From IMG/VR virus record IMGVR_UViG_3300008262_000126, positions 1 to 64,000 of that record: 64,000 bases of DNA; one strand, 5' to 3'. Within the stretch, counting starts at the first letter, position 1, and each line of letters starts with the position of its first letter. The DNA is from a virus. The notes under the pieces are model-generated. The model did no database searches, was not told where the DNA came from, and saw only the letters and a list, made by a program, of their open reading frames with translations. The position numbers were made by a program, and so were the translations under genes. Positions 21,117-50,660 of this stretch are shown here, piece after piece.

Positions 21117-21518
21117 ATGTTAGATTACGCATTTGGGGCCGGAGAATATTACGACAACGTGGATGATTTGCTTCAAGACGATTCAATGTTAGAGGTAGAT
21201 TTGACGATTAAGGGATTAAAAAAACGATTACGTATCCGCGCTCTGAGCTTTGCGCAGATGGAGAAAATTAACCAACTTTCGCAGAAGAACGGAGAAATGG
21301 ACAACACCGAGTTTACGGTAAATACTATTGTAGAGGGATTGATTCGTCCAAAAATGAATTCAGCACAGGCAAAGAAACTGCTTGATGCCAACGGGGAGGT
21401 AGTACGTGAACTCGCGGAAAATATTTGGACTCTTGGAAAAATATCAAAAGACGCTTTCGAGAAGTACCTCGAGACACTTGAAAAGGACGCCTCTATATCG
21501 GAGCCCGTCGAAGAATAA
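21117..21518 (+). CDS. tail assembly chaperone (G-like)
   Basis: LRIRALS and GLIRPK patterns; between tube and tape-measure genes. Confidence 0.7.
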   Translation: MLDYAFGAGEYYDNVDDLLQDDSMLEVDLTIKGLKKRLRIRALSFAQMEKINQLSQKNGEMDNTEFTVNTIVEGLIRPKMNSAQAKKLLDANGEVVRELAENIWTLGKISKDAFEKYLETLEKDASISEPVEE

Positions 21519-21534
21519 CGCAGTCGGTATTCTA

Positions 21535-21780
21535 ATGAAAACCGCCATATCCACAAAGGATGAACTTGCGATGTGGATAGATCATTTTTTAAATTCAACG
21601 CAGTATACGGCACTAAATGCGAAGAAGCTATCTAAGCTTAGTTACGCAGATATGGCCGCAATCATTGCAATAAAACAAAAATCTTTAGAAGCTAGCGTCC
21701 GCCGCAAACTTCAAAAACAAAAGAAACTGGAAGAAAAAGAGTTAGTTGAGGAGGCGGAGACGTTCAAATTATTTATGTAG
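21535..21780 (+). CDS. tail assembly chaperone, second ORF (T-like; possibly frameshift-fused)
   Basis: Frame open from 21406, overlapping the first chaperone; directly before the TMP. Confidence 0.5.
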   Translation: MKTAISTKDELAMWIDHFLNSTQYTALNAKKLSKLSYADMAAIIAIKQKSLEASVRRKLQKQKKLEEKELVEEAETFKLFM

Positions 21781-21790: not shown

Positions 21791-24700
21791 ATGTCAGATA
21801 GAATACAACAATTAGTAGGATTAATTCAAACGCTGCTGCTTTTAAAAAGTACTAGTGAAGAGGCTGCTAATGTTTTTGAGAAGGTTATACAAAGTAAGGC
21901 AAACGCGCATGAGGGTGGTTTAGCCGGATATTTAAAAGAAATTACAGCAGACGCTAAAACAGCTACTACAACACTAGCTATATTAGAAAAAGAGATTAAG
22001 GCAGTAAGCGCGCTTCCAGTAAGGGCAGCAGCTGACGAAACTCTTACTTCAGAAGGTACTCGTCCGGCACCCGTAGTTTCGGATGCGGCACGTAAGCGTA
22101 AGGAAGTACAAGATCGGATAGATGACGAACGAAAAGCACTTAGAACAGAGGTGCGTGGTAACAATAGGCCAACAGTTGTAAACGTACATACAGATAGGCT
22201 AAAAAATTATGAACTTTTGCTTGCCCAGCTAGACGAACAAATAGACGAGCGAGAAGACACTCTCAGGGATCTGATCAGACGAACGCAAACTAAAATGAGA
22301 ACGCCGGCAAAAACCTCTCGTTCAAGTTCACCAGTTGCGGATCCTGAGTACGCAGACATGAAATGGGCGCTTACTACACCGGATACTCGTTCCGCTACAA
22401 GTTATGCTGTTACACCGAATCGAGGAGGACGGGTCAGCGTAGCTCAATCGGGCGGAGCAAGGCCTCCCGAAAACGCCTCCGTTTCGGCAATTGTTAAATA
22501 TGTGAATACTCAACTGCGTCACGAAAATCCAGCCGAAACTCGTCCGGAAATTGCCCCGATTGTCGCCGAACTTCAAAAACTTGTAAAAGACCGAGAAGAG
22601 GCAACTGTTCCTGCGGACAAAAATAGAATAAATCAGCAAATTAAGCAAGCATTCAAAAAGATAAATCAATCTTCTGGCACAGTAAGCAACACACAGCGAC
22701 AAACGGCACAAGAATCAATTATTGCCCCAATTATTGAAGCATTGCGGGCAGTAAAATTAGACGACCCTACACTTAATGCGGCAATGTCTCCAGTAGCTAG
22801 CAGTTCTGAAATTGAGTCCGCTCTAACCAGAGCCGTTGAAATGTTGGTAACTAGACTTGAGAATGGTGCAGCAGGAAGAGTAGGAGAAACAGCTTTAAGT
22901 ACTGAAGGTTTTGAGTTTTTACGTCCGGCGGCTTTTGATCAGTTGCTGAAAAGATTGAAAACGGTAGTTGCAGAAGCAACGACTCGACCGGTAATACCAA
23001 GAAGCCGAACAGTCGATCCAGGTACTGCAGAAGAAGTAGATTCTTCTGCGTTATTTTTGGGAACTGACTTTAGCATACAAAATGCCGGAGAAGATGGTAG
23101 TCCTCAAGTAGTAGACGCTTTACGGAGTAGCCGAGTATTTCCGGGACAGGTAACCAGAATCGGTGCTAACATTTCAAAGTATATTCAATCACTCAAAGCT
23201 TCACTAAATCCTACGCGTCGTTACAGTTCGGAAGCGCAAGGCGTAGACGTTCGTGCCGGTTCCCAAGTAGTAGCCGGAAGCTCAAGCGCCGTTTTCGGTG
23301 GGGGCATGGACGCCGAAGTACAAAAGGCGGTTGACGCGCTCTTTTCAACCGTTATGCAGGACATAGAAGAAGGAAACATAAGGCCCGCTTCGATCGCAGG
23401 GCAGACTGTAGACTTGCCTGAATCTCTTGCAAAAATGGTTGTGGAGGCGATTCAATCTAGTTCAATTTTGTCAGAACACACAACAGCTTTCGGTAGAATG
23501 GCTGGAACTCGGGGACCTAGAGGGGCGATAGTTACTGGAGATCCAGTACGAAAGTTTGTTGCTTTGTTTGCGGGCGATTTAATAAATCAATATACTTCGA
23601 CAGGGGCTGTTTCAGATCAGTCCGCTAGTCGTTTTGTAGAGCAGACAGTTGCTCCGGAACAAGAACAGGAAGTTACGTTGGCAGCAACTCACGCAAAACG
23701 TTTGCGCGAAAGACTTGTTTATCAGAGAGATCAGGCAGATCTCAGTATGGTAACTGCGGCTCCAGCAATGGCTAATCGCTACAGAACTGAGTCGGCAAAG
23801 CTTGGCAAAGAGATACAGTTACTGGATGAGATTCTGGCTGAATCTGAAAATCCAGAAGAGGAAAAAAAGTTAGCGCAAAGACGTGGACAGATAGCACTTC
23901 CGGGCAGTAACACAGCTCCCGCGTTAACGCGAGATCAAGCACTAACTGTTTTATTTAAACAGTCTATTGGATCCATTCCTGCAACACCTGATGCGGTAGC
24001 GCCGATTATAAGCAAAGCTCAGGAAGTTTCTGCGGGACTTGCACAATCGGGACTTACAATTCCAGCAAGACCCTCTTATGGAACTAGTCCCGTACAATCG
24101 TTAGTAGAGTATATGACATCCGGTCAGTCTATGGCACTAGACCGTTATCAAACTACTCCAATTACGCAGCAGTTAGACTCAGCCGGTAAAGTGTCGTCAG
24201 GTCAGCAAAATCGAGAGTTTATCGAAATTATAAGCGATGCTTTTGGTTTATCTCGACAGTCTGCTTCTGCGGGTAATGTCATTACTGGTTTGTATCATGG
24301 AGCACGTGCGACAGACGCCAGCGGTAAAATGCTTGAGGGAGAAGAGCTTGATCAATCGCTTGGCGGTGGCTACAGAACAAAGAAAGGTTTGCAATCAATT
24401 GTTCAAGCATCCGCAGAGATGGGTAGTTATGGTTCCGGCGGTATTCCCTTAATTGAGTACGCTAAGTTAGCAACTTCAACCGACCTTGACGCAGAGGAGC
24501 AGAGTCTATTTCAAGAGGTGCAGGCAAAACTTCCGCATCTGCAAGCAATAGATTCTGATTCACTTAAGCAACTTGCTGAGTTAGACACGTCGATGGATCC
24601 CAAAGAGTTAATTAAACGCGTGTTGACTTTGGCAGCCCCAGCAATAAAAAATCAAATAGTTGCTTCAATTAGGCGACGAGGTGGCGCTGCCGGCATGGGA

Positions 24701-27700
24701 GTTGATGAAGTCACTCAAATGATTTCGGATTACGAAACAGCCGGGGTTGCTCCAGCAGGGTTTCAAGATGAATTTCGCGCTTTAGCGATGTTTGATCCTG
24801 CTAACATAAACACAACCGATGTATCTGCAGCGGTTAACCGATCGCTTTCGTTGTTCAGCAATTTATTAACTGACAACGTGCAGTCAGGCGAAGGTATGCC
24901 TCAGTTTGCAGCCCGAGTTTTAGGAAGACAGGACCGACTAGTTGGTACGGGTCCGGATGTAGCTGCAGCCGTTCCTGATCAAGGAGCGTCTTACAGCTTG
25001 ATGGGCAAGGGTGCAGAAGTTGCAAATCAAGAGTCTGGTCAAGTTGTCGGTGGTACGTATGGTCGCAATGTAGAAAATCAAATAAAAATTCAAGAAGCAA
25101 TGAGTGAGTTTGAGCAGTTAACTGCTGAAATAGAGGAAATGCAGAGAAGGATAGCTTTAGCACCTCACGAAGCTGATAAAGTACTTCCAGTTATCGAGCA
25201 AAAAAACAATCAACTTAAGATTCTTAAACAAAAACTTGATACTTACAAAGCATCAGAACCAGATCCTATTTCTCAAAAATTTGAAGCTCTTTCCACAATT
25301 GCCCAAATGGACAATATTGACCCCGCAACAAGAAGTGCTGCAATTTACGATTTAGGCATTATGCAGGAAATTTTTAATCAAACTGGCCGATACCAGATTG
25401 ACGAATCCCAAGGATACGGAACTGGTACTCAAGAGCAACGCCTTACTAATTTGATGGCTCATAAAGCAAAGTTAGACCGTTTGCAAAAATTGAGAGAAGA
25501 ACGAGCAGCGTTAGAGGCAGAATCACCTGGAGATGGTCCCGCTAAGGCAGTTGAAGCTGTAATTAAAGAATCAGACGTTGATGGAGAAATTGCAGCTGTC
25601 ACAAAAGACATTAGCGACATGAAGTCCGAAGGTACGGGGTCAGAAAAAAAAGTTGATGCTTCACCTTATGCAAATATGAATATGACGGAATTGGAAGATC
25701 TTTATCAGAGATCTTATCAAAAATATGATAGAGCTATGTCTGCTGTACCTGGAATAGAAGAGGCAACCCAGAGATACCACAACTATGAAGGCGAGGATGA
25801 CGAACAAGAATTAGAAATCTTAGTAAAAGCTCTTGAAGGCGCACGGGAAAATAACCCAGAGGTTGCAAAACTGTATCAAGAGCATCAAGCAGTAAGTGAC
25901 GAGTATGAACGCCGTATCAAGGCTAATATCGAAAATAACCGCGCAATACAAGAAAAATTATCTCCTGCTGAAACTTCGGTTATGGCAACTTCAGTGCCAG
26001 GAACAATAGATGAAGAAATAGCAATAGACGAAAACGCCGTACCTTTAAAAATCCCTAGAATAAATCTTACAGAAAGTAAAGATATCACTGATGATGTTAC
26101 GGCTGAGGATAAGTCAGTTTTTGTACACCCGGCTACTGTGGAAGCACAACTTATAGAATCTCCGGCCTTTACGGCATTTTTAGCTGGTAAAGAAAATCAG
26201 ATAATAAGTGGTAATCAAGATCGACTAGCCATCCGTCAAGATGCGGAAACAGGTGCACTTACGGCAGCGGTGGCTGATGGAGCGAGTTCGTCTTGGTTTT
26301 CCGCGAGGTTAGCCAACATGCTAGCAGAAGAGGCTGTTAACTTACCTACAGACGAGCCTTTTACAACCGAATCAATTTTATCGAGAGTTAATAACAGATC
26401 GGCACAAGAACAAGTAGACAAAATTTTAGAATATTTTACTGACGAGGACTATCAAACCCGTTATCAATTGCAACGTATGGGTTTAGAAAAAAATGATAAA
26501 TCGAAAGAAAAATTTAAAAAATTTTTACAACCTTTTGAAGAGGCCGGTACAAGCCCAACTGTCAGAGAACTTATAGCATTTTTACACGGTGAAAAAGCTG
26601 CAAACGACCCTGCCAACATTGGCCAGGTTGCCGGTGCTACGTTTGCCGGTTATCGCAGAACAAGAAGTTCAGAAGGCTACAAGCATGAATTTCTTACTGC
26701 TGGAGATGCTTTAATAGAATCGGCTGATTTAGGTATTGCTAAAGAGACGCTGGGCGAAAATAAAACGAATCCGGACGGAACTCCCTACACAGGACCGCAA
26801 ACTGCAGGGATTATATCAACTGAAAGTGGAATAGCTCACCCAGGAAAAGTTTTGACAATTGAGTCAAAAACTCCGGCACGTGTTTTCTTAGCGTCCGACG
26901 CATATTCACATAGCGGAGAATTCAGCCGACTTGATCCGGAAGTTGATGCTGGAGGTTTTGTTAACTTAGGTGAAAGACTGCTTCTTGACGAGGGGGAGTT
27001 AGGTACTCGGCAAGACGACCGAAGTTTTATAGGCATTACAGGAAGCGAGCAGACGGGTCCTGTAGTAAAGACCGGCGGACTTGCTGAAGAGGGATTTACA
27101 GGATTAGAATTTACCGATCAGTTAGAAGCGTACTTAGCACAAGAAAAACGTAAATTAAGTCAGATAAATCAATTGCTGACCGACAGGCCGGATATAGATA
27201 AAGAGTTAGAAAGAGAACGTCAAGCATTACTTAAATCTGCTGAAGCCGAAGTTGAACAACAAGGACAACTTGCAGAAGAAATAACAAACACACATCGAGC
27301 GATTGCTGATGAATATGACGCGGTTGTTGACAGATTAATGAAAAACAGATACGCCGGTCCCGAAGAAAAAGCTCAAGATAGCGAAAAACATCGAAAACTG
27401 GCGCAAACGCCGGAAATGCAAGAAGTTTTAAAAGCAAGAAGAGAGGCGTTTAAAGCTGAGCAAAAGTACAAGCAGATAGTAGCCGAAAACCCGCCGACAA
27501 GTGCAGAAAAAGCTAAAGTAGTTACAGAAAACAATATTCAGGCATTAACAGAAGAGCTTACAAAAAGAGGAGTAATCTTACCGACTGAGACAACACCAAC
27601 AGCGGAAACTGTGATACCGGTAACTGACGTTACATCGGTTGCTGAAGAACCAAAAAGAATTGCAGATGAGCCTGTTAAAGTCAGTGCCGAAATTAAAGCA

Positions 27701-30700
27701 TCGCCCGAAGAGATTCAAAAAAGAAAAGCAGACCTAGATTTACAAATAGCCGAAGCCGCAAGAGAAGCAGCACAATCACAACAGGTTATAGAGTTAATGC
27801 AAAGACAGGCCCAGGGTTTAGACACGGAAGATAGCGACATTCGTTTTGTTGTTGACAATACAGGCATTCCGGTAAGTTACGAAGATAAGCAGGTAATTGA
27901 CCGAACTTCTTTGCGTCCGCTAGTGCGGACAAAAATGACTGTTGATGACACTGGTGAATCAGGATTTGTTTCTAATTTGAATGTTAGAGATATCGTAGAT
28001 CAAGCAGAAGCAGTCAAGCCAACCGCCGAGTTAATGGACGAAATCGGTAAAATGTCCGATGCCGATCTCGCTGCTGTCAAAATGCCTTCAAAGGTTCTTA
28101 CAGACGAAGAGAAAGAAAAATATCAATACTTAAGACAAGCGTCGAAACAGGCAAAAGAAGAAGCACGTAAAATCTATGAAGCTGACACTCCCCTTGGTGA
28201 AGCAATTCGAAAATATTACAGAATTACCAACGTAGAAGAGCGGGACAGAATGACGCTGGGAGACATAGGAAGCCCGGCAATTCCCGGATTAAAGGAAGCC
28301 GTAGCTGAGTACGAATTACAGCGGGGTATATCACTTGGATCAGACGAGCAAACGGGTAAGCTTGGAAAGGCGAGTGAAGCCACGCCACTACAACTCGCCG
28401 CTCGTTTATTCAGATCGTCTCGTGCAGCAGTCAGAGCGTATGAAACAGAATTTGGAGTAGAGCCTGCGTTTAGTGCGCGCGAGGTAATGGACGAGCTCTT
28501 AGCATCTTCCGCAAGAGCCGAAGTAGATAGCGCTCCAGCTGGATCTGCAGAAACAGCGGTAGCATTGGACAAAACTATTTCAAGCTTTGAAGGGGGAATA
28601 CCTGAAATTAAAGGCTCTACTGATAGAGCACCGAGAAGACCTAGAAGAGCCCCGGCTGATGTAGTTGCAGACGTTGAACAACCTTACACTGAGAATCAGT
28701 TAAAGTATGCTCGAGCACAGGTAAGGGCTTTAGCTGGCAGAACCGACCTCACAGCCGAACAAAAAAGACAATTAAGCGAAGCAAGAAAAAAATTACACAA
28801 TTATGCAATGAAGCGGTTGACGACTAATTTCGGGGACAACAAAGGCGTGATGCAAATTGCAAACGTAGTTGCCGGTTTAACTCCTCCTGATTGGGCAAAA
28901 GATGACGTGCAGAGTGCCCGTGTTTCGGCAATATCACAAGCAATGGCTGACTTAAAACCAGGACAGTTGGCGAAGTTGAAAGACGTCGATCTTAGAGACC
29001 CAGTGCAGATGGATATACTTTCAAAAGATCCGGCGCTGCAGCCAATAATGGCGTTGCTGGCTGATCAGGATATCGATGCCGCGCTTAAGTATAGATCAGG
29101 CACGACGGAATACGATGAGGCAAAAGGACTGCTATCTGCAATTGAAGGGGCAAAGAAACGCTTACCTGTTCCTGAGCCAACGGCTGGCGTACCGACTGAC
29201 GCAAGGCGATTGTTTTTTGACTTAGAAACAAACTTTGCAAAAAAACCTGAAGACCGGTTAATCTTTCAAGCAGCTACAGGCGTTAACGACGGAAAAGTCA
29301 GCGACATGTACGCAGTTCCCTTAGACTCGAGCGCTGAGGAGATAAACAGAATAGCGGTGGACCCCACAATTCCCGATGACGAGAAGAGAAAATTAATTAG
29401 AGAACTCGCTCTTAAACGAGCTGGAAAACCTCCTTTAGTTGAAGGCAGAGCCAGCGGTAACGACGTTAGTTCGGGAGTTATCGATAATCTAGTTAATGCT
29501 GCAATGTCGGGACGTCAAATACTTACTCAAGGCCAAATACGCGGAGATTTACAGAGTCAAATTCTAGCTGCCACTACAGTAGCAGGGCATAACATTGAAA
29601 CCTTTGACTTGCCCACAGTATACGGCGGCGAAATGGCTGTTCCGGATGCAGTAAAAGCAAAAACAGAAGACACATTGCTGATGAGTCGTAACATGTATCC
29701 AGGATCTCACACACTGAGTGATACATATGAGGTGGTTACCGGAGATCCGCTAGTCAACGCTCACGATGCACGCGCAGACACGGAAGCAGTGCAAAGAATA
29801 TTTCCTCAGGTTTCTGATCCAGAGGAACGTGCCAAAATAACAGAAGCATATTTAGCAAAACATGGAATTACAATGGATTCCGCTGTTGGTCAGCTTGTTG
29901 CTACACCTAAGATAGCAGACATTGCAGATACGGAAGAACGAAAGAAAGCATCTAGACAAGTGGCTGAGGCGCACGCTTTCTATCAACCTTTAGCGGACAT
30001 GCAGGACTTTACACGCCGTATCGCAAAAAGCGGCGGTAAAACAATACTGAGGGACGCTGATAAAACAGTGGCTGCTGAACAAGGCTGGTACGATATGAGT
30101 CCAGCTGCGAAAGCTAGTTTATTCGAACGAATGAACAAAATGTTTGTAGGACATACTAAGCTCAAAGGGAAAAAAATAGAAGAACTTGACGACGCAGAGT
30201 TAGGCGAGTTTGTTAAGGAAATAAATGCTACCTACTTAGAACCCAATGCAGATGCGGCAGTAGGTGGGGATTTCGGCGGAATGAAAAGACTGCTGGAGGA
30301 AAAAGTAGGCGGGAAAATGGCGTTCTCTGATTTTCGAACACCAGCTGAACGCCTTGCAGCCATTAAAGGTAGAACAATTGAAGATGTAATGAGCACAGCA
30401 GGTTCTTCGGGTGTTAAAGTTGGTCCTGCCATAAGTAAAGAAACAGTGGGCGATGCAATTGAAGATATATCATTAGCAACTGAAAGACCGACAAAAGTGA
30501 AAACTCCCGGATCTGCACCATCGGTAACTGCAAGTACTTCGGACGGCGGCTCAAAAGAACCCCCAAGAGAACCACCAGTTACTTTCTCAGACGACGCGGA
30601 CTCTGGCGAGCGTGGTGGTCCTGGCGGCGGTATTACTACAATAGCTTCGGCTACTATCGACACGTTGCATGCCGGTGCGGTAGAGATAAACATTCATGGT

Positions 30701-33700
30701 GGTAACGTTACTATAGATGCCAACTTCAGTGCAGGCGCTGCAGAGAAAATGCAAAAATCGTTAGTGTACATATCAAATAAAGATGGTATGAACGTAAACG
30801 GCGATGTCACTAGTGTAGGTACGGGCGGTGGTGGCGGTGGCTATCGACGGGTGTCAGTTGCTGACAGATCTATATTAAATCAACTTGACGCAGCAAAAAA
30901 CCAGATAGCTGGGCAACTTCAAACAGAAACTGACCCAGCAACACGAGAACGGTTGCGCGGTAACCTCAATGAGGTCAGCAGGCAAGCAATTCGCGCCATT
31001 ATTGAGCCTAAGGTAAAAGCAATTGATAGCGAAGGTATGGAACCTTACGTCAACGAACGTTTTTACTACGGGGATGAAACAACAGATTCTAAAGAATCGT
31101 TGACATATTACAATGACGCGGTGGCACAGGCACATCAAGACCTCACTACACAACTTGAAGCTCAACAGGCAATTCCAGAAGGAACTGACGGAAGAGATGA
31201 AGAAATTCAGCGAATACAAAAGCAAATATCGTTAGTTGAGGAACTTATCAATGCGCTTACAGAACTTAATCAAGCAGAGCAGCGTGTAGGTAGTGCAACT
31301 TCAACTAGAGCAATTGTTGATCCTACTGAAGTAAAAAAACCAGCATATCCTACGAATAATAGCGGTTATCGAAAGTTGTCTCCAGAAGATCGTGCTTCAT
31401 TAGCCGTACTCGACGCTACAAAAAATTCAATAAGCGAGCAGCTGAGAACTGAGCAAGATCCAGAAGCCAGGGCAAGATTAAAAGAAACACTAACCGGTGC
31501 GAGCAAAAAAGCAATTGCAGATATTATTAAACCGAAAGCAACAAAGCTACTTGGCTATGGTTTTGTAAATACTGTCGACGCCTTATCAACATCTCCAGAA
31601 GACTCATTAGTTAACTATAGTCAGGCGGCGCAGAGCAAACTTAGCGAATTAAACGGTAGATTGTTTATGATCGAGAGCGAGCGAGAAGATGCTCCGGGTC
31701 GTGAAGAAGCAATCGAGAGAACTAAAAGAGAAATACAGCAAGTCCACGAGCTTATAGACGCTTTGACCGAGCTTAATCAGGCTGAGCAACGAGTTGGTGC
31801 AGCTGGTGCAACACGTAATGCTGAAAGTCCTTACGGACCAAAACCAACTGCAGATCCGCGTGCAGGAGCTAACAAATATAGAAAAGTTTCGTTTGCGGAC
31901 CAGGCTTCTTTTAATGTTCTGGAATCTACAAAAAATGAGGTATCCGCAAGACTGAGAGATGAGACCGATTCAGCAGCACGTGACGCGCTGCGTCAGAGTC
32001 TTGTAAATGCAAGCGAGCGGGCTATTAACGAAGTTATTAAACCTAAAGCGGCGAAGGTATTAAATCCGACGCAGCTTGCGGCGCTTTCGGCTTTGCCAAT
32101 GGGTCCTGAAGAAGCACTAGTCTCTTACAATGAAATGGCCCAGTATAATCTCAATAATCTCTCAACCGAATTGGCTACACAAGAGGCACTGCCTGAAGGT
32201 ACAAGCGGAAGAGATACAGAGATTGAAAGATTAAAAGCAGAAATAGCCGCGGTTGAGGAGCTCATTAATGCACTGACCGAATTAAACGCTATAGAACAAC
32301 GCGTTGGATCGGCAAGTGGTACACGCAATGTAAACAGTCCGTACGGTACTACATCCGGAACTGGTACGGGAACATCAGCAAGTAAATACTACTCAAGAAA
32401 AGCGAAAGAAGACGAGCAGGTATTTCTACAGTTAGCGCGAAACTCATTCGATCAATCAGCGGGGTCTATGGGTATTGCGGGCGGAACAACGGCCGATTCT
32501 CGTAAATTTTTAACAGACCTTACGCGCAGTACTGCAACGACAATGATTAACAGTTCGGGAATACAAGCTCCGGGAATGGCCGCCGATATTGCAGCGATTG
32601 CAGCAACAAGTCCCGAAGTACAGTCAGCTTATGATGATGCAGCTAAAAGTTTAACAGATTTTAGTGGAAAAGTTGGCGGTACAATTACAGACGTCGCTGA
32701 CGACTTATTTACTGTAGTTTCTGGATTAGAGAAGCTGAAAGCGGCGCTTACTCCTATAGCAGCTACCTCTCCTCAAGCAGCAGCAGCTTTGGCGGTTGTT
32801 CAAACTGCTATTGACGAAACAAGTGCGGCTGGAAAAGAACAGCGGGGAACTGCAGGTGTAATTGAAACGGACAATCGAAAGAAAGTTTCGCTTGTCGAAG
32901 AACAAATGCAAGCAGCAGCAAGTAGACCTGGATTTTTTGCCGGCGGCAGACGTGAAAGAGAAATGAGGCAGATACAAGAGGGATACATAAGAGACACCTT
33001 CGGTAAGGAAGGACTAGACGCCCTTATGCACCGAGGTAGAATAAGAGCATACACAGCAACAGGAAAACGTGTCGACATGGCGCAAGCAACTGTACAAGAG
33101 CAGCGAGACACAGTTGAACGATTACAAAAACAAGGTATTAATATTACTGCTGAAGATATGACAGGTATAGCACGAATGTCCGGCAGAGTCGAACAGACAA
33201 AAAGATCTGCACCGATGGGCGATAAGTTATTCTATGCTGCGTCAAAAATTAGAGACACGCAGAGTGTAGTTCAAGCGGCAGTTGATACTGTTACTAGTCT
33301 AGCAAACATACCGCAAATGGCCGGAGGAATGATTCAGCAGTTTGCGAGTAGTGCTACAGGATCTAACAGGGTAATGACAACCGCAAGAGGGTTAGCACTT
33401 GATCCAGAGAATTATACAGCCGCATTAAATGCGGCTGATATGCAGAGAAAGCAATTCGGCGGCTCATTAACTTCAAATCTAGGTCAAGTTACTAGCTTTA
33501 TTCCCTTGTCAAACGCGTACGGTGTAGATATTGGAAAGTCTGTAAAAGTAGCTAGAAAATTAGCCGCGTTTGACCCAGCTCAGGGTATGGAAGGTGCTGG
33601 CATAGCAATCAAAGAATTTCTATCTGGTAACGTTTCGTCTCTCTCACGTCGATTTGAAATTAATCGATCCGCGCTTTCTAAAATTAATACCGGCGATGCA

Positions 33701-36700
33701 ACACAAATGCTTGATAGTCTTGATCAGCTTCTTTCAAGTATGGGCGTTACTGATAGACTTATTGATGAGCAAGCAAACTCTATGGCGACTAAATACGACA
33801 AGATGATCGGTAATCTGGAAAGTGTGCAAATTAGCTCAACTACGGCGATAGTCGACTTTATCACTCCGGCGCTTGAATCTTTAATTGGAGAGCAGTCGTA
33901 CTTTGGTAAGAATGTAAAAGAGCGTTCACTTAATACCGTGCTTAAAGAGACCATTACATCTTACGGCGATGACATATTAAGCGATCCGGAAGCTGGATTA
34001 GACAGCGTTAATATTGGCGGCAGTTTAAGCACGTTTACTTCGCAAATGGACACAATTTTAGAAGCGGCAAATAAACGAATGGCCGGAGAGGCGGGAAGGT
34101 ATAATAGTGCTACTGGCGCTTCTGTATCAGTTCCTGGTTATCGTCTACTCGGTAACATGAAGCCTCAAGAACGAGCAAATATTCAATTTGATGCGCTGCT
34201 TGGGCAGGCACAAGGATTAAATGCAACTCAAGCAATTATGCAAGCCATGCGAAATAATCCCGGAGATTACAACTCAAGTCCTGAATTTTTAAATCAACGC
34301 GAATCTTTAAAAACTAGACAAGTGAAAGTTGATCCGGTTGCTTACGCAGAAGCTTACAAAAAAGCCGAAGCTGGTTTGCTTGTAGCGGATCAAGGCGCAA
34401 CAGATCTCAGCGGTCTGGGCTTGGGGTATATAAACTTTAATGCCGAGCCCGTAAAAGAAAAACCTCTTATGACTAAGGGAAGAGTAAGAAGACAAGTTGA
34501 CGCTGATACGTTCGATATAGAAATACCGGGACGCAAAGACTTGGTCAGGGTTAGAACGGGTGTTATAGACGCACAGGAAAAAGGAACGCAAGATGAGCTT
34601 GCAGCCCGTGTTGGCGGTGCCGATATAATAGGAATGGACCGAGCCATGATTGGTGGGGAGTATAAACCCGGACAGGGACCGGAAATTACATTAGTAGGAA
34701 CTTTAAAAAACATTGACGAGAACAATAGAGTAGTTGCTCAACTGTTAAATAGCGAGGGTAAGAATTACTCGCTTGAAATGATAGCAACCGGAAATGCATC
34801 TTCAGCTTTTATGCAAGGACTTGATAAACAGACTATAGATAGTCTTGCATACATAGAGAAGGTAGTTGCCGATAATGGAGTAGGTCCGCAAAACAGAATA
34901 GCTAGAGATTTAAACCTTGGAGGAGCTCCCGAAATTTCAGAAGAAGTGCGTAGTTCCTATTTCTGGAATAAATATGGATTAGGTATAGGTGGATCCGCAA
35001 TAGCAGGGGGAGCAGCCGGTTTAGGCGGAGCAGCGCTTGCTACCAACGCCACACTTGGTACAGCTGGATTGGCAGGCCTTGGTGGATTAGTAGCTGCTGA
35101 AATAGCCGCTGCAATAGCCCTCCCTGCCGTGGCGGCCGTGGGTTTATATGCAGGCGGGGCTTATGTGTCAGATCGGCTAGATAGTTCTCCCGAAAAAATG
35201 AGAGAATTGTATAAAATGCAAAGTGATCTAGATCGACAAGATGCAAAAATGAACATATTTAATACATTTGCAGATCAGGCAAACTTAAATGCTGAGCAAG
35301 TTGGTAAATATGTGGGTGGTGCTAAGTATCGATCTGACATGCCAAGTAAGGAAATTGTACTTACTCCGGGATTTGGACCGGGAGCTCCAATTATTCCAGG
35401 TACTGCACCAACAAAAACAGCTTTTGAAATTATGCAAGATAGCAAGGCTTCGCTAGGACAGGTTTATTTAGCAAACTACGAAGAAGCTTCCAAAAGTGGA
35501 CAAGAGCGGTTTGCAACAGCCGGCGACGCAACTAAGAGAATATTAGAACGTCAGGTGTACGATCCGGTATCAGAAACCATGATGTCTTATGTTGATTACG
35601 AGGCTCAAACAATAGCGCTTAAGAAAACAGCCGATGTTGATCCGACGGCATACAGAAAATTTGATGCGATGCGCGGAGAGATTTTAAAACCTATAGGGCA
35701 AACTGGAGCACTTATTGAAAATGAGAAATTAGTTGAGCGGGGCATTAAATATGGAACCAGGTTAGACAAACGAGCATTAGCTGAAGCCGAGGCTTCTCCA
35801 TTTCGAGCAGACGTTGCAGATTTAACTAAAAAAAGAGACGACGCGTTTAATGCAGGAGCCGTAGCTGAAGGTCAAAGATATAAAACTCAAATTGATAAAG
35901 CTAATGCTGAAATAGAAAAAATTACGTATACAGATGCTGAATGGGATAAAATACCAGAAGCTGCGCGTTACTTAATAATGTCGGCTGAAGAAGTCGCAAA
36001 TATGACTGCAGAAGAAATAAGATTTGCAGCTGATCAAACCTACCAACAAGGGCTTAATCCAGTTGACTATAAGCAAGAAGCAAAAAACTTTTTTGACGGT
36101 ACAATGGACCGTAATTTTCAAAGACGGCAACAGCGTGTAGACACAACTTTAACTGCTTTTGCAAGACAGTCAATTATGGGATTAGGCGATGCGTCGGCGT
36201 TGCCTAATGACATAGCTAGACAAGTTGTTAACTCTGGTGGAGCGGGGGTAATTGACAACACCCCAGAAGCGAGAGCTGTGCGTATGGTAGGGCGTTCAGG
36301 CTTAATGCCAAAAAATAGAGATTCTGCGCTAGACACTGTAGCAATGCTTACCGAAGCACAAAGAGCAGCAGTAAGAGAGCAATTAGATATTGCAAGAACA
36401 AATCGTCAAGTAGCTTTAGCTAATGCACCAGAAGCTCAATTATATAAATCAGGATTTACAAATTTTGTTATGGCAATGAATAAAGCAGGAGCAACTGCAG
36501 AGGATCTTGGTCGATCTTTTATGAACACCATGAACATGATGTCCGAAGGCAATCCTAGATACGGCTTAGACTTAGCACAGCAAATGACTGGTTTTAGCTA
36601 CGAGGCTATGATCGGTATGCAACTTCGTCCGCGCACTGGTGTAGATGCCGAGGGTAATCCTATATCAAGTCTTAACGGCGCGAACGGTATGCCTTACGGG

Positions 36701-38356
36701 TATAATGCAAAACCCGGCGAGATTATTAGTGGGCCAATGGTCATGCCGTACACTTCAGGCCCTCGAGGAACAATAGCGTACTCGAGAGACATGATGGCAG
36801 TAGGTGCAAACGGTGTTCGAGAAGGCGCTTTAGGTATTGCTCCTTCGCAATGGCAGCAGTTTGTATCAAACGCTACAAACGCAAATGCCGAGTTACAAAG
36901 ACGTGCAATGAGTAATGCAATGCAAGAACGCGATTTGAATAAGAATCACCAGCGTAATCTTGAAGATATTACTCGAAACGGCATGCGTCAGTTAGAGAGC
37001 ATTCATTTAAATTACACACGAAACATGCAACAGATGACCATGCAAGCAGACCTTGTTAAGGGAGCGACCCGAGCAAATGCAACAAGAAGCATTGCAATGG
37101 CTGCTATCGACCCTACAAGCAAAGCAGCTCTTAACAGCCAATACTGGGCGCAGGATATGTATTCTCAGCATCTAGGTCAAGGCGATTCGAAAAATTTCTT
37201 AAAAGACAGCGCAAACATAGCAACTCTTACAGCGATAGATCCTTCATTGTCTGCAGACATAAGCGCATTAGAGACTACAAACGCCGCGTATGAAAGCTCA
37301 GCCATAACAGACCCAAATAGGCAGAATCTGCAAGATGCAAAAAGAGCGACTATAGAACCAATTTTAACTAAGCTACGGGGCCTTATTGAAACTGAAGAAG
37401 ATCCAATAAAAAAAGCCGCACTCCAGACGGCCCTTGTTCGTTTAAGTCCAGATGCATCAAAAACAATAGCAGCTCAAACTGAAAATGACAAATGGTTAAA
37501 GCAGACGCTCGGTGATAAAATAACTCAAAAGCAATTAGGTCAACAAATTGCTGACCAAGAGTTTCAAAATCAGTTTAGACCGTTGGATATTGCAAATGAC
37601 TCAGCAAGTTTAGCTGAAGCAGGAAAATCAAAAGATCCTTTAGCTTTTCTTAATGCAAAACGTTCAAGTCTGTCAATGTACCGCGGATTTGCTCAGTCTG
37701 ATATTGGTTTAGCTGAAACTACAAATAGCTTGACAGGTTTGTTAGGAACTGGTAGTCTTTTTGAAACGAATACTACCGAAGCGTTTAAGCAAATAGCTGA
37801 AGTTGCGGGTAGCGCGACTCAGGGAGTTCTTTATAGTCTTGACGATTTTGAAACCTCGTTTCAACAACAGATGGAAGATGCTCTTAGAAACTTCGAACGA
37901 CAGCGTTTGGATATGATCCAGGCCTTTGCTGATGCTGCGGTTGAAATTGCGTCAATTGTTCCTGAAGAAATGGTACCAATTATGCAAGCTACAAGTGCCT
38001 TTATGAATACGCAACGACAAGCCGAGTTACTCTGGCTGTCTGGAAGAACAGACGAAGCCAACGCACTTGCCTACCAAGGCATGCTAAAGCTTGGCGAAGT
38101 TGTGTACGGTGAAGGTAAGGGTAAAGAATATGCAGACAAATATAGTCAGAACTTTCAAGACATGGCAGACGTTGCAGCACGAGACGTTCCTCAAGGTGAC
38201 TTAGGAAAGTTTGCTGTAAAGACAGAAGACGGTTGGGCATTGCTGGTAAAAGAGACTAAGTCCGCACGAGTATACGACAGGCCTCCTCCTAATAAGGATA
38301 AAGAGACTCTGAATCAAGGGAATGGTCCGTTTGTTGCACCGGGTGGCAAAGGCTAA
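21791..38356 (+). CDS. giant tape measure protein (5521 aa) with PP2C-like, DEDDh exonuclease and SNase-like domains
   Basis: Canonical position after tube and chaperones; TMP core (LAAFDPAQGMEGAGIAIKEFLSG..SLSRRFEI, ~33400-33900); coiled coils; hydrophobic segment. Confidence 0.85.
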   Translation: MSDRIQQLVGLIQTLLLLKSTSEEAANVFEKVIQSKANAHEGGLAGYLKEITADAKTATTTLAILEKEIKAVSALPVRAAADETLTSEGTRPAPVVSDAARKRKEVQDRIDDERKALRTEVRGNNRPTVVNVHTDRLKNYELLLAQLDEQIDEREDTLRDLIRRTQTKMRTPAKTSRSSSPVADPEYADMKWALTTPDTRSATSYAVTPNRGGRVSVAQSGGARPPENASVSAIVKYVNTQLRHENPAETRPEIAPIVAELQKLVKDREEATVPADKNRINQQIKQAFKKINQSSGTVSNTQRQTAQESIIAPIIEALRAVKLDDPTLNAAMSPVASSSEIESALTRAVEMLVTRLENGAAGRVGETALSTEGFEFLRPAAFDQLLKRLKTVVAEATTRPVIPRSRTVDPGTAEEVDSSALFLGTDFSIQNAGEDGSPQVVDALRSSRVFPGQVTRIGANISKYIQSLKASLNPTRRYSSEAQGVDVRAGSQVVAGSSSAVFGGGMDAEVQKAVDALFSTVMQDIEEGNIRPASIAGQTVDLPESLAKMVVEAIQSSSILSEHTTAFGRMAGTRGPRGAIVTGDPVRKFVALFAGDLINQYTSTGAVSDQSASRFVEQTVAPEQEQEVTLAATHAKRLRERLVYQRDQADLSMVTAAPAMANRYRTESAKLGKEIQLLDEILAESENPEEEKKLAQRRGQIALPGSNTAPALTRDQALTVLFKQSIGSIPATPDAVAPIISKAQEVSAGLAQSGLTIPARPSYGTSPVQSLVEYMTSGQSMALDRYQTTPITQQLDSAGKVSSGQQNREFIEIISDAFGLSRQSASAGNVITGLYHGARATDASGKMLEGEELDQSLGGGYRTKKGLQSIVQASAEMGSYGSGGIPLIEYAKLATSTDLDAEEQSLFQEVQAKLPHLQAIDSDSLKQLAELDTSMDPKELIKRVLTLAAPAIKNQIVASIRRRGGAAGMGVDEVTQMISDYETAGVAPAGFQDEFRALAMFDPANINTTDVSAAVNRSLSLFSNLLTDNVQSGEGMPQFAARVLGRQDRLVGTGPDVAAAVPDQGASYSLMGKGAEVANQESGQVVGGTYGRNVENQIKIQEAMSEFEQLTAEIEEMQRRIALAPHEADKVLPVIEQKNNQLKILKQKLDTYKASEPDPISQKFEALSTIAQMDNIDPATRSAAIYDLGIMQEIFNQTGRYQIDESQGYGTGTQEQRLTNLMAHKAKLDRLQKLREERAALEAESPGDGPAKAVEAVIKESDVDGEIAAVTKDISDMKSEGTGSEKKVDASPYANMNMTELEDLYQRSYQKYDRAMSAVPGIEEATQRYHNYEGEDDEQELEILVKALEGARENNPEVAKLYQEHQAVSDEYERRIKANIENNRAIQEKLSPAETSVMATSVPGTIDEEIAIDENAVPLKIPRINLTESKDITDDVTAEDKSVFVHPATVEAQLIESPAFTAFLAGKENQIISGNQDRLAIRQDAETGALTAAVADGASSSWFSARLANMLAEEAVNLPTDEPFTTESILSRVNNRSAQEQVDKILEYFTDEDYQTRYQLQRMGLEKNDKSKEKFKKFLQPFEEAGTSPTVRELIAFLHGEKAANDPANIGQVAGATFAGYRRTRSSEGYKHEFLTAGDALIESADLGIAKETLGENKTNPDGTPYTGPQTAGIISTESGIAHPGKVLTIESKTPARVFLASDAYSHSGEFSRLDPEVDAGGFVNLGERLLLDEGELGTRQDDRSFIGITGSEQTGPVVKTGGLAEEGFTGLEFTDQLEAYLAQEKRKLSQINQLLTDRPDIDKELERERQALLKSAEAEVEQQGQLAEEITNTHRAIADEYDAVVDRLMKNRYAGPEEKAQDSEKHRKLAQTPEMQEVLKARREAFKAEQKYKQIVAENPPTSAEKAKVVTENNIQALTEELTKRGVILPTETTPTAETVIPVTDVTSVAEEPKRIADEPVKVSAEIKASPEEIQKRKADLDLQIAEAAREAAQSQQVIELMQRQAQGLDTEDSDIRFVVDNTGIPVSYEDKQVIDRTSLRPLVRTKMTVDDTGESGFVSNLNVRDIVDQAEAVKPTAELMDEIGKMSDADLAAVKMPSKVLTDEEKEKYQYLRQASKQAKEEARKIYEADTPLGEAIRKYYRITNVEERDRMTLGDIGSPAIPGLKEAVAEYELQRGISLGSDEQTGKLGKASEATPLQLAARLFRSSRAAVRAYETEFGVEPAFSAREVMDELLASSARAEVDSAPAGSAETAVALDKTISSFEGGIPEIKGSTDRAPRRPRRAPADVVADVEQPYTENQLKYARAQVRALAGRTDLTAEQKRQLSEARKKLHNYAMKRLTTNFGDNKGVMQIANVVAGLTPPDWAKDDVQSARVSAISQAMADLKPGQLAKLKDVDLRDPVQMDILSKDPALQPIMALLADQDIDAALKYRSGTTEYDEAKGLLSAIEGAKKRLPVPEPTAGVPTDARRLFFDLETNFAKKPEDRLIFQAATGVNDGKVSDMYAVPLDSSAEEINRIAVDPTIPDDEKRKLIRELALKRAGKPPLVEGRASGNDVSSGVIDNLVNAAMSGRQILTQGQIRGDLQSQILAATTVAGHNIETFDLPTVYGGEMAVPDAVKAKTEDTLLMSRNMYPGSHTLSDTYEVVTGDPLVNAHDARADTEAVQRIFPQVSDPEERAKITEAYLAKHGITMDSAVGQLVATPKIADIADTEERKKASRQVAEAHAFYQPLADMQDFTRRIAKSGGKTILRDADKTVAAEQGWYDMSPAAKASLFERMNKMFVGHTKLKGKKIEELDDAELGEFVKEINATYLEPNADAAVGGDFGGMKRLLEEKVGGKMAFSDFRTPAERLAAIKGRTIEDVMSTAGSSGVKVGPAISKETVGDAIEDISLATERPTKVKTPGSAPSVTASTSDGGSKEPPREPPVTFSDDADSGERGGPGGGITTIASATIDTLHAGAVEINIHGGNVTIDANFSAGAAEKMQKSLVYISNKDGMNVNGDVTSVGTGGGGGGYRRVSVADRSILNQLDAAKNQIAGQLQTETDPATRERLRGNLNEVSRQAIRAIIEPKVKAIDSEGMEPYVNERFYYGDETTDSKESLTYYNDAVAQAHQDLTTQLEAQQAIPEGTDGRDEEIQRIQKQISLVEELINALTELNQAEQRVGSATSTRAIVDPTEVKKPAYPTNNSGYRKLSPEDRASLAVLDATKNSISEQLRTEQDPEARARLKETLTGASKKAIADIIKPKATKLLGYGFVNTVDALSTSPEDSLVNYSQAAQSKLSELNGRLFMIESEREDAPGREEAIERTKREIQQVHELIDALTELNQAEQRVGAAGATRNAESPYGPKPTADPRAGANKYRKVSFADQASFNVLESTKNEVSARLRDETDSAARDALRQSLVNASERAINEVIKPKAAKVLNPTQLAALSALPMGPEEALVSYNEMAQYNLNNLSTELATQEALPEGTSGRDTEIERLKAEIAAVEELINALTELNAIEQRVGSASGTRNVNSPYGTTSGTGTGTSASKYYSRKAKEDEQVFLQLARNSFDQSAGSMGIAGGTTADSRKFLTDLTRSTATTMINSSGIQAPGMAADIAAIAATSPEVQSAYDDAAKSLTDFSGKVGGTITDVADDLFTVVSGLEKLKAALTPIAATSPQAAAALAVVQTAIDETSAAGKEQRGTAGVIETDNRKKVSLVEEQMQAAASRPGFFAGGRREREMRQIQEGYIRDTFGKEGLDALMHRGRIRAYTATGKRVDMAQATVQEQRDTVERLQKQGINITAEDMTGIARMSGRVEQTKRSAPMGDKLFYAASKIRDTQSVVQAAVDTVTSLANIPQMAGGMIQQFASSATGSNRVMTTARGLALDPENYTAALNAADMQRKQFGGSLTSNLGQVTSFIPLSNAYGVDIGKSVKVARKLAAFDPAQGMEGAGIAIKEFLSGNVSSLSRRFEINRSALSKINTGDATQMLDSLDQLLSSMGVTDRLIDEQANSMATKYDKMIGNLESVQISSTTAIVDFITPALESLIGEQSYFGKNVKERSLNTVLKETITSYGDDILSDPEAGLDSVNIGGSLSTFTSQMDTILEAANKRMAGEAGRYNSATGASVSVPGYRLLGNMKPQERANIQFDALLGQAQGLNATQAIMQAMRNNPGDYNSSPEFLNQRESLKTRQVKVDPVAYAEAYKKAEAGLLVADQGATDLSGLGLGYINFNAEPVKEKPLMTKGRVRRQVDADTFDIEIPGRKDLVRVRTGVIDAQEKGTQDELAARVGGADIIGMDRAMIGGEYKPGQGPEITLVGTLKNIDENNRVVAQLLNSEGKNYSLEMIATGNASSAFMQGLDKQTIDSLAYIEKVVADNGVGPQNRIARDLNLGGAPEISEEVRSSYFWNKYGLGIGGSAIAGGAAGLGGAALATNATLGTAGLAGLGGLVAAEIAAAIALPAVAAVGLYAGGAYVSDRLDSSPEKMRELYKMQSDLDRQDAKMNIFNTFADQANLNAEQVGKYVGGAKYRSDMPSKEIVLTPGFGPGAPIIPGTAPTKTAFEIMQDSKASLGQVYLANYEEASKSGQERFATAGDATKRILERQVYDPVSETMMSYVDYEAQTIALKKTADVDPTAYRKFDAMRGEILKPIGQTGALIENEKLVERGIKYGTRLDKRALAEAEASPFRADVADLTKKRDDAFNAGAVAEGQRYKTQIDKANAEIEKITYTDAEWDKIPEAARYLIMSAEEVANMTAEEIRFAADQTYQQGLNPVDYKQEAKNFFDGTMDRNFQRRQQRVDTTLTAFARQSIMGLGDASALPNDIARQVVNSGGAGVIDNTPEARAVRMVGRSGLMPKNRDSALDTVAMLTEAQRAAVREQLDIARTNRQVALANAPEAQLYKSGFTNFVMAMNKAGATAEDLGRSFMNTMNMMSEGNPRYGLDLAQQMTGFSYEAMIGMQLRPRTGVDAEGNPISSLNGANGMPYGYNAKPGEIISGPMVMPYTSGPRGTIAYSRDMMAVGANGVREGALGIAPSQWQQFVSNATNANAELQRRAMSNAMQERDLNKNHQRNLEDITRNGMRQLESIHLNYTRNMQQMTMQADLVKGATRANATRSIAMAAIDPTSKAALNSQYWAQDMYSQHLGQGDSKNFLKDSANIATLTAIDPSLSADISALETTNAAYESSAITDPNRQNLQDAKRATIEPILTKLRGLIETEEDPIKKAALQTALVRLSPDASKTIAAQTENDKWLKQTLGDKITQKQLGQQIADQEFQNQFRPLDIANDSASLAEAGKSKDPLAFLNAKRSSLSMYRGFAQSDIGLAETTNSLTGLLGTGSLFETNTTEAFKQIAEVAGSATQGVLYSLDDFETSFQQQMEDALRNFERQRLDMIQAFADAAVEIASIVPEEMVPIMQATSAFMNTQRQAELLWLSGRTDEANALAYQGMLKLGEVVYGEGKGKEYADKYSQNFQDMADVAARDVPQGDLGKFAVKTEDGWALLVKETKSARVYDRPPPNKDKETLNQGNGPFVAPGGKG
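30842..32386 (+). repeat. three tandem ~170-aa repeats inside the TMP (525, 510 and 510 nt)
   Basis: Units start at 30842, 31367 and 31877: YRxxS..D...L...KN....L..E.D...R..L ... ELI(N/D)ALTELN..EQRVG. Confidence 0.9.
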
Positions 38357-38412: not shown

Positions 38413-38829
38413 ATGACATATACGATACAGCCCATTTACCTCAGTGGTAGTTTACACGGGTATGGATTTTATCAAGATTTAAAAGCAACTTCGATTAGCA
38501 CCACAATGAACAATGTAGCTGAGGTGTTGCAAGCAGTTGACGGCACCAATTCGTATCTTCACAGGTCATACAAGCATGTGTGGAACGTAACCTTTAACAT
38601 GATTGTTTATTCTGGTTCTGCTGGTTATCCGTTGGCCACAGTTGCAAATTTACGTGGTATCTATCAGGGATTTTCCAGCGTGTCAACGAGCGTTATTTTT
38701 TGTTTTGAATCCAAACAGTACCCTGTTTTTTTCGAGCCAGGTAGCTGGCAAGCGGAGTTGGCTTCGACAACTGTCACAATGACGAACAAGCCGTACTATA
38801 ACGTCTCGTTTAGGCTGGTGGAGATATGA
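38413..38829 (+). CDS. distal tail (Dit-like) protein
   Basis: Directly after the TMP; AVDGT and YNVSFRLVE pattern. Confidence 0.6.
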   Translation: MTYTIQPIYLSGSLHGYGFYQDLKATSISTTMNNVAEVLQAVDGTNSYLHRSYKHVWNVTFNMIVYSGSAGYPLATVANLRGIYQGFSSVSTSVIFCFESKQYPVFFEPGSWQAELASTTVTMTNKPYYNVSFRLVEI

Positions 38830-40394: not shown

Positions 40395-40403
40395 GAGGTT
40401 TAT

Positions 40404-49571: not shown

Positions 49572-49731
49572 ATTAGAGCAAATGGCGAAGAAGTATGCAA
49601 AACGGCTGTTGACACGGCTCGAAGCATATGGTATTGTTAACAACGAAGTTCGGAAAGCAGTGCTTGATGAACTCAATTCGATGGCGAGAGAGATCGCCTC
49701 AATGCAGGAGAAAAAAGATGGCATTCGGTAA
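49555..49731 (+). CDS. small hypothetical protein (58 aa, below ORF-track cutoff)
   Basis: MESSSKLEQMAKKYAKRLLTRLEAYG...; GGAG RBS; bridges the GT4 and SSB genes. Confidence 0.55.
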   Translation: MESSSKLEQMAKKYAKRLLTRLEAYGIVNNEVRKAVLDELNSMAREIASMQEKKDGIR

Positions 49732-50602: not shown

Positions 50603-50610
50603 GTGAGCAA

Positions 50611-50650: not shown

Positions 50651-50660
50651 TGGAGGTTTT

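Follow-up and report, generated by a model that had tools for sequence, protein, structure and literature searches.

Enzyme motifs within a tape measure protein (TMP) are known from pb2 of phage T5, in which a peptidoglycan hydrolase motif is embedded. A motif of the same kind is embedded in the TMP of mycobacteriophage TM4, as described in PMC1796659. An enzyme acting in the cytoplasm is fused to the tape measure in gp96 of the Thermus phage P23-45, a TMP of 5,002 amino acids (aa) whose first 1,200 aa are reported to be an active virion RNA polymerase and to have been detected in virions (Chaban et al. 2024, PMC10770324). The same paper describes this polymerase as transcribing the pre-early genes and acting on the entering DNA, its packaging mode being unknown according to the authors, and calls the tail of P23-45 extraordinarily long; the preprint abstract puts it at about 800 nm. 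Proteins of the gp96 class also occur in P74-26, G20c and TSP4. Two further systems are of interest: the polyvalent proteins, such as the P1 DarB-type head cargo (Iyer et al. 2017, PMC5512222, a text in which "tape", "PP2C", "SNase" and "DnaQ" do not occur), and the TMP-related modular effectors of Sle1 type described from actinobacterial contractile injection systems (PMC13277306). Here we compare with these systems a giant gene, encoding 5,521 aa, from the IMG/VR virus record IMGVR_UViG_3300008262_000126, a record of 72,320 bp rated as about 95% complete, of which bases 1-64000 were analysed (the window). We find it reasonably probable that the product of this gene is the tape measure of a phage with a non-contractile tail, enlarged into a polyvalent carrier that delivers the enzymes of its front half.

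Tape-measure core and enzyme domains of the giant protein

The giant gene is a single uninterrupted open reading frame (ORF) at 21791-38356 of the plus strand under genetic code table 11, as the first-pass annotation had stated. A Shine-Dalgarno sequence (AGGTGG-like) lies immediately 5' of its ATG, the gene makes up 23% of the 72-kb genome of this uncultured phage, and its product is identical to the protein record P0002. Sequence comparisons identify it as a TMP homologue standing in the slot of a tape measure gene. A TMP core had been proposed unusually late in the chain, at about aa 3870-4040, and an alignment of 13 giant proteins (that of the window and twelve relatives, see below) does show its hyperconserved block there (Table 1). 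When the tile containing this core (aa 3800-4066) was compared by tblastn with 50,697 phage records, 19 were matched and all 19 matches lay under genes annotated as tape measure, the best being those of Deep-sea thermophilic phage D6E (E = 2e-6, 35.6% over 104 aa), Clostridium phages (2e-4) and Brevibacillus phages (2e-3). In relatives of about 1,030 aa the core stands close to the N-terminus, as in ordinary TMPs, and one of them (P0025, 1,044 aa) has a weak match to TMP_3 (E = 0.0038) and also matches the TMP of D6E (E = 1e-6). The C-terminal tile of 1,921 aa had no match among GenBank phages at E <= 1e-5. A hydrophobic segment and long helical stretches, both usual in TMPs, are present as well: the N-terminal module is helical in its model, and the Gly/Ala-rich segment, which had been pointed out as a membrane segment, contains the only 19-residue stretch with a Kyte-Doolittle value above 1.4 and starts 50 residues after the last enzyme domain. 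The three repeats that had also been noticed were recovered by BLASTP between the units (40-41% identity, E = 1e-34 and 7e-30).

The first of the three proposed enzymes was a PP2C phosphatase at about aa 1460-1750. An AlphaFold2 model of aa 1442-1769, built from an alignment of seven rows, reached a predicted local distance difference test (pLDDT) of 77.6 and a predicted TM-score (pTM) of 0.80. In a Foldseek search of the PDB this model matched 110 chains at E <= 0.001 (best E = 2.5e-7), and all the listed rows have the PPM/PP2C fold; they include PppA, PstP, RsbX, tPphA, human PPM1A/B and the Legionella proteins Lem3 and SidD, which are PPM-fold enzymes removing other modifications. VIA-align gave Z-scores of 15-17 over 205-239 residues, with 165 chains at Z >= 8; the values for Lem3 and PPM1B were 16.9 and 15.9 over 215-239 residues. 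Residues D1477, D1496, G1497, G1638 and D1639 are invariant in the seven aligned rows, and the region also contains SDAY (D1703) and QDD (D1742/D1743); these aspartates would correspond to the PPM metal-binding motifs in their canonical order. Searching 1.84 billion representative proteins with the PP2C tile retrieved three relatives only, two of which are P0026 and P0027. Such a phosphatase could reverse Ser/Thr phosphorylation in the host, and since the best structural match is a phosphocholine hydrolase, other phospho-modifications are also possible targets.

The second enzyme, a DEDDh exonuclease suggested at about aa 2470-2670, was matched by PHROG 192 (E = 4.2e-7). Its family profile of six rows retrieved exonuclease chains of 195 aa from the PDB (E = 1.9e-6) and, more weakly, Pol III epsilon and RNase T, and the residues of Exo I (D2477, E2479), Exo II (D2606) and Exo III (H2658, D2663) are invariant in all six rows. 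The protein of the window has no Pfam RNase_T match at E <= 1, and the counterpart in the related locus L015 passes that model (29.9 bits for a cut-off of 24; aa 2257-2404, model positions 1-164 of 164), where the family hidden Markov model (HMM) matches aa 2256-2414. A word-based search with the DEDDh tile found only P0028, a fragment of the same protein, and single-sequence searches of the three domain tiles against the PDB were uninformative save for a weak DEDDh-type match (E = 0.015). This domain could act on the ends of nucleic acids or on nucleotide signals.

The third enzyme, a staphylococcal nuclease (SNase) at about aa 4230-4340, also held up, although its own score with Pfam PF00565 is partial (15.9 bits, under the cut-off of 21). 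The homologous domain exceeds that cut-off in the six relatives scanned by id (P0012, P0013, P0014, P0016, P0018 and P0019; 24.7-40.3 bits), and a profile of the back half with the tile of the window as its first row matched thermonuclease in the PDB (E = 1.2e-9, chain residues 9-126 of 143). D4237, D4239, T4240, R4255, D4260, E4263, D4309 and R4313 are invariant in the 13 giants, and these presumably include the equivalents of D21, R35, D40, E43 and R87 of SNase. The envelope is a possible site of action of the nuclease, as is DNA at the point of entry. Tests of the kind that the first-pass annotation had proposed (structure prediction and Foldseek for PP2C, family profiles for the two nucleases) matched all three enzyme folds; to judge from sequences and models, the folds are real and their catalytic residues kept, and the activities are predicted from them.

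Relatives, cassette exchange and proposed delivery

The layout of the chain suggests two parts. The back half (about aa 3018-5521) would be a conserved ruler and channel, made up of the repeats, the TMP core, the SNase domain, the Gly/Ala segment and the C-terminus. In the front half (aa 1 to about 3000) a helical module would come first, followed by a mosaic of linkers and enzyme cassettes (PP2C, DEDDh) that are exchanged between phages. Relatives were sought among proteins of 3,036-9,662 aa, which yielded twelve giants of 4,437-6,477 aa on contigs of 20-94 kb. A scan of IMG/VR added 15 loci, each containing a giant open frame; those that are complete encode 3,991, 4,476 and 4,666 aa, and the rest are truncated at the ends of their loci (2,399 to more than 5,155 aa). 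Protein records of the family are numbered P00xx and the related IMG/VR loci L0xx below. No relative was found in the representative genomes, one per species, of 185,579 prokaryote species, which gave the idea of a prophage no support.

The N-terminal module, the TMP core and the SNase domain are each present in all 13 giants, DEDDh in nine and PP2C in five (twice in P0005), a tally made with family HMMs that were built partly from the same proteins and therefore show presence or absence rather than independent significance. Other cargo was sought in six front halves of loci and in four whole giant-class relatives of less than 5,000 aa (P0012, P0013, P0014 and L016, of which L016 and P0014 share their C-terminal 300 aa). 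Instead of or beside the cargo of the window, a NUDIX domain occurs in L004/P0003 (25.7 bits, cut-off 21.1) and cpYpsA-SLOG in L017 (26.7 bits, cut-off 26.2); DUF7831 is found in P0012 and E3_binding in P0016 and, according to precomputed annotation, in P0009. The comparison of cargo that had been proposed thus indicates that, at the level of sequence, the relatives keep the back half and the helical module and swap the cargo in between, so that unrelated enzyme domains are joined in one giant polypeptide and shuffled among relatives, as in polyvalent proteins.

The exchange can be followed in the DNA of the closest relative, L001. Nucleotide identity with the window is 94.8% over aa 825-1293, falls to 74.6% over the PP2C cassette (aa 1405-1940) and returns to 92.9% over aa 1946-2099 and 88.8% over aa 2199-5484. 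Between these segments, aa 1294-1404 have no counterpart in L001 and aa 2100-2198 are unaligned, and after the PP2C cassette L001 has 3.26 kb that the window lacks, inserted where its NUDIX match lies. In P0005 and P0006 the same coiled-coil linker of about 57 aa, identical in sequence, follows directly on PP2C cassettes that are otherwise about 30-40% alike, which suggests recombination at the linkers; charged helical linkers separate the cassettes. The gene also diverges far more quickly than those around it. Its tile from the TMP core to the membrane segment is about 38-39% identical to that of the window in L006 and L016, against 76-80% for the tube-like ORF and the chaperone of these loci.

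These data bear on the idea that the whole chain is a ruler and nothing more, setting an extremely long tail of about 0.7-0.8 micrometre (at 0.15 nm per residue) in which the enzyme-like domains are inherited filler. P23-45 fits this idea, as the lengths reported for its TMP and tail come to about 0.16 nm for each residue of the full chain; tandem repeats, a usual device of TMP length change, are present here, and the N-terminal module and many linkers are long helices. Yet the catalytic residues of the three enzymes are invariant among relatives that are 25-50% identical, which argues for selection on activity, and the cassettes are replaced by other enzymes (NUDIX, SLOG) and not by arbitrary spacer. 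We therefore regard the filler hypothesis as unlikely; the long tail on which it relies is in any case compatible with delivery, since length and cargo can coexist.

A further regularity concerns cysteine: none of the 24 family proteins (91,271 aa; the protein of the window and P0003-P0025) contains any. The 30 other ORFs of the window contain 72 cysteines in 11,093 aa (0.65%), from which about 36 would be expected in the giant protein, and P0027, a free-standing PP2C-like homologue, has five in 319 aa. A second candidate control, P0026, was dropped: its N-terminus resembles that of the giants, it has three cysteines in an odd C-terminal tail and it may be a fragment, which leaves P0027 as the sole free-standing PP2C. 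By their sequences, the enzyme cassettes are under the same constraint against cysteine as the ruler part. The absence of cysteine from the whole chain fits a protein that leaves the cell in the virion and travels unfolded, and a cysteine-free front half argues against its staying in the cytoplasm.

This last point matters for another alternative, according to which the gene encodes a polyprotein whose front half is cut off during or after translation, the enzymes then serving the producing cell (in replication, nucleotide metabolism or late takeover) and the back half alone being the ruler. Database records of 1,614-2,759 aa correspond to the back half alone, so it could be a self-sufficient TMP, and the conserved element between poly-Gly runs (aa 2960-3017), located exactly at the boundary between the variable front half and the conserved back half, may be a cleavage site or a hinge. 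The C-terminal 300 aa of one of these records (P0018, 2,327 aa) are the same as in the open frames of L008 (at least 2,399 aa, cut at the end of the locus) and L010 (at least 4,470 aa). Some short members are thus probably truncated gene calls, split genes or contig artefacts, and the view that these records are complete minimal forms was withdrawn. Moreover, the front half is as free of cysteine as the back half in all 13 giants, in contrast to P0027 and the cytoplasmic proteins of the phage, and no peptidase domain appeared in the Pfam, PHROG and NCBIfam scans. The N-terminal enzyme of P23-45 is, for its part, reported from virions (PMC10770324). Together these points make cleavage improbable in our estimate.

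The preferred reading, in which the front half is delivered, is consistent with three indirect lines of evidence: the exchange of the middle domains, the absence of cysteine from the whole chain and the precedent of gp96. The following course of events would account for them. The chain would be loaded into the tail lumen in an extended, cysteine-free state. On receptor binding at infection it would be expelled, and the Gly/Ala segment would insert into the membrane as part of a conduit. The front half, nearest the end of the DNA, would follow into the cytoplasm with the DNA or just ahead of it, refold and act early: the phosphatase on phosphoproteins, the exonuclease on nucleic acids or nucleotide signals and, in the relatives, the NUDIX and SLOG domains on nucleotide-derived signals. 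We infer from the lines above that the whole chain is in the virion, is ejected, refolds and has the targets just named.

If delivery is confirmed, it would explain why 23% of the genome is spent on one gene and why this gene diverges faster than its neighbours. It would also mean that TMPs are a general route by which long-tailed phages bring in ready-made enzymes and that P23-45 is not a one-off. The lineage would offer a natural series for such a study, from TMP-like relatives of about 1,000 aa reduced to the core, through back-half-only records whose completeness is uncertain, to giants of 4,400-6,500 aa with varied cassettes. A bolder version can be proposed tentatively, although the odds are rather against it: the tail lumen would serve as a protein-delivery device, and the giant as a cysteine-free unfolded "cartridge" of swappable counter-defence enzymes threaded in ahead of the genome, to refold in the host. 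In that case, PP2C would reverse phosphorylation by defence kinases, the targets of the DEDDh, NUDIX and SLOG domains would be nucleotide immune signals, to be destroyed or sequestered, and SNase would attack the DNA of the host or of rivals. The ruler gene would then be the main fast-evolving anti-immunity locus of the phage, and the helical N-terminal module a new loading or translocation module.

Locus order and remaining features

Table 1. Features of the giant protein and of the genes around it. Positions are those of the window; L numbers designate related IMG/VR loci.
Feature	Residues (aa)	Positions	Strand	Basis
Tail-tube-position ORF, 143 aa		20596..21027	+	L006 and L016 have 76-80% identical homologues in this position ahead of the giant gene
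Tail assembly chaperone-like ORF, 133 aa		21117..21518	+	XkdN-like matches; 78-79% identical ORFs upstream of the giant gene in L006, L009 and L016
Second ORF overlapping the chaperone, G/GT-like pair		21406..21780	+	Overlap in +1 frame
Conserved all-helical N-module	441-1239	23111..25507	+	13 of 13 giants
PPM/PP2C-fold phosphatase-like domain with helical insert of about 110 aa	1442-1769	26114..27097	+	AlphaFold2, Foldseek, VIA-align
DEDDh (DnaQ/RNase T-like) 3'-5' exonuclease domain	2470-2683	29198..29839	+	PHROG, family profile, relative L015
Short conserved element between poly-Gly runs	2960-3017	30668..30841	+	Translation, family consensus
Three tandem repeats of about 170-175 aa	Starts 3018, 3193, 3363 (to 3535)	30842..32395	+	BLASTP between units
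Hyperconserved tape-measure core	3860-4035	33368..33895	+	About 90% mean column conservation in 13 giants
Staphylococcal-nuclease (thermonuclease) domain	4226-4345	34466..34825	+	Profile match to thermonuclease, invariant residues
Gly/Ala-rich hydrophobic (probable membrane) segment	4395-4458	34973..35164	+	Kyte-Doolittle
Conserved C-terminal region	4461-5521	35171..38353	+	Kept in all giants
Five downstream genes (138, 522, 845, 786 and 701 aa), presumed distal tail		38413..47403	+	Order kept in related loci

The N-terminal module matched none of the databases with which it was compared. The AlphaFold2 model of aa 401-1250 (pLDDT 69.9) is nearly all helices and had no Foldseek match at E <= 0.001 in the PDB or BFVD; the region has no Pfam match, and the ESM Atlas gave no neighbour for it (best score 0.75). 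The weak BFVD rows are mostly long helical tail proteins with TM-scores of about 0.1. The module may serve in loading or translocation, or be no more than ruler. The idea that it is a virion RNA polymerase, as in P23-45, was considered and rejected, as the family has no conserved DxDxD and neither the PDB and BFVD comparisons nor the ESM Atlas supplied such a fold. The residues before the module (aa 1 to about 440) are poorly conserved and charged, and the part of them that was modelled (aa 401-497) is of low confidence (pLDDT < 50). At the other end, no known domain was found in aa 4461-5521, the profile of the back half having matched only SNase in the PDB.

The first-pass annotation placed the gene after tube and chaperone genes and before Dit and Tal. 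The chaperone stood, by weak matches of the 133-aa ORF to Phage_TAC_5/XkdN-like Pfam models (E = 1.4e-3, below the cut-off) and to PHROG 389 (E = 2e-4). The giant gene therefore lies between a chaperone pair, if a weakly matched one, and the presumed distal tail genes, as a TMP gene should. The overlapping arrangement of the pair and its homology are kept in L006, L009, L013 and L016. The frame relation of the chaperone ORF to its partner is +1, not -1, and it is the same in L006 and L016; alternatively, a separate gene of 82 aa could begin at the in-frame ATG at 21535. The order of the related loci is likewise conserved, from the tube-like ORF, the chaperone and the overlapping ORF through the giant gene to the genes of 138, 522, 845, 786 and 701 aa. 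Between the capsid gene and the chaperone no ORF exceeds 200 aa, so a sheath is absent and a non-contractile tail is expected. The labels tube, Dit and Tal did not fare as well. The 143-aa ORF had no sequence match in Pfam, PHROGs or the PDB, the downstream genes had no family or PDB match (among them the 522-aa and 845-aa products, without PDB sequence match), and the 20 neighbouring ORFs compared with PHROGs, ten of them also with Pfam, hit no structural family.

The preferred reading has thus to be weighed against several unfavourable results, some of which concern the identity of the gene as a tape measure. The ORFs labelled tube, Dit and Tal are without family or PDB match, as just described, and the TMP models PF20155 (TMP_3), PF10145 (PhageMin_Tail) and TIGR01760 found nothing in the six frames of the whole genome at E <= 10. 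The giant protein, in three overlapping tiles, hit no TMP family of Pfam, PHROGs or NCBIfam at E <= 1; these scans yielded just the PP2C_2 and SNase matches below cut-off and the exonuclease match of PHROG 192. The ESM Atlas comparison of aa 3700-4200, in which 28 of the 30 named neighbours belong to TMP_3 or PhageMin_Tail clusters (score 0.92), had a recognition of 2260, under the reliability line of 2300, and gives a lead only. Because the curated models find nothing, TMP homology is based on tblastn, synteny and this language-model lead; a consequence for annotation is that curated TMP models miss this whole family. The same silence of the models, together with neighbours that resist annotation, could suggest that the giant is a separately packaged ejection or internal virion protein which captured a segment resembling a TMP core, the true ruler being another gene. 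Nevertheless, the TMP models hit none of the other genes of the genome, the giant gene directly follows the chaperone pair, the 19 phage records matched by the core are without exception annotated TMP genes, and the relatives of about 1,030 aa have the core where ordinary TMPs have it. We consider a captured core to be very unlikely.

Other unfavourable results concern the enzymes. For PP2C, the match of Pfam PP2C_2 (PF13672) is partial (E = 0.015, 15.2 bits) and below the cut-off of 24 bits, as are those of the homologues P0026 (19.9 bits) and P0027 (21.9 bits), and the family profile found no phosphatase among the PDB sequences; the assignment consequently rests on the structure predicted from the seven-row alignment. 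SNase is typically Ca2+-dependent and usually extracytoplasmic, and the site of action of this domain may be the envelope and not the cytoplasm. Given these properties and its place immediately ahead of the membrane segment, action in the cytoplasm is less certain for it than for the other two enzymes. A tail lumen should be too narrow for folded domains of 25-35 kDa, so packaging would need an unfolded state. Finally, the Pfam, PHROGs and NCBIfam scans revealed no processing peptidase, though the roughly 60% of the chain without an assigned fold could hide one. With these reservations, we retain the tape measure that delivers its front half as the preferred reading.

Some observations concern the genome at large. 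The coding strand of the giant gene is rich in A, with an AT skew of 0.14-0.23 (window positions 22000-38000) versus about -0.07 to +0.08 over most of the window, because of the A-rich codons of Glu, Lys, Gln and Ala; the last 2-kb bin of the window also has a skew of 0.14. Past the structural genes, a replication block on the same strand (48354-55588) encodes a glycosyltransferase (PHROG 2170, E = 4e-43), an SSB-like protein, a primase, a DnaB-like helicase and a family A DNA polymerase. The glycosyltransferase could mean that the phage DNA is modified, which would be relevant given the nucleases that the phage carries. Genes for three tRNAs (Arg-TCT, Met-CAT and Leu-TAA) lie in 61078-63406.

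Comparison with described systems

The first-pass annotation knew of no described TMP with such a combination of domains. As far as phosphatase or nuclease cargo is concerned this stands: no description of a TMP carrying either was found in full-text searches, subscription journals and supplements being outside their scope. The idea itself is not without precedent, since gp96 is a TMP-fused, cytoplasm-acting enzyme already in print. The giant resembles the TMPs of TM4 and T5 (pb2) in having enzyme motifs within a tape measure that act, or in its case would act, at entry. Unlike them, it would not be aimed at the cell wall, as it has a phosphatase and nucleases and no muralytic domain was detected in it by Pfam, PHROGs or NCBIfam.

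The likeness to polyvalent proteins lies in the joining of many host-aimed enzyme domains in one long chain and in their shuffling, and the NUDIX and SLOG-type domains of the relatives are shared with them (PMC5512222). The carrier differs, being the tape measure of a tail, and no processing peptidase was found here, while the conclusions of that paper stress pervasive peptidases. Like the effectors of Sle1 type, as described in PMC13277306, the giant would combine a TMP-derived scaffold with exchangeable functional domains loaded in a tail-like tube. Those effectors belong to a bacterial injection system and have a single C-terminal domain, whereas the giant is a phage ruler with several N-terminal enzymes.

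The comparison with P23-45 is the closest. Both proteins are TMPs of about 5,000 aa with an N-terminal enzyme and a membrane segment further on, the gene of each occupies a considerable part of some 70-80 kb of genome, and action in the host at the time of DNA entry is assumed for the enzymes of both. There is no detectable sequence relation between them, the sole Thermus phage match of the core tile having an E-value of 0.8, and the giant lacks a conserved DxDxD, an RNA polymerase fold in its N-terminal module and any detected metallopeptidase domain. In place of one RNA polymerase its cargo consists of several small enzymes (PP2C, DEDDh and SNase), and this cargo varies between close relatives. 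The giant protein is in this sense a multi-enzyme version of the enzyme-fused tape measure.

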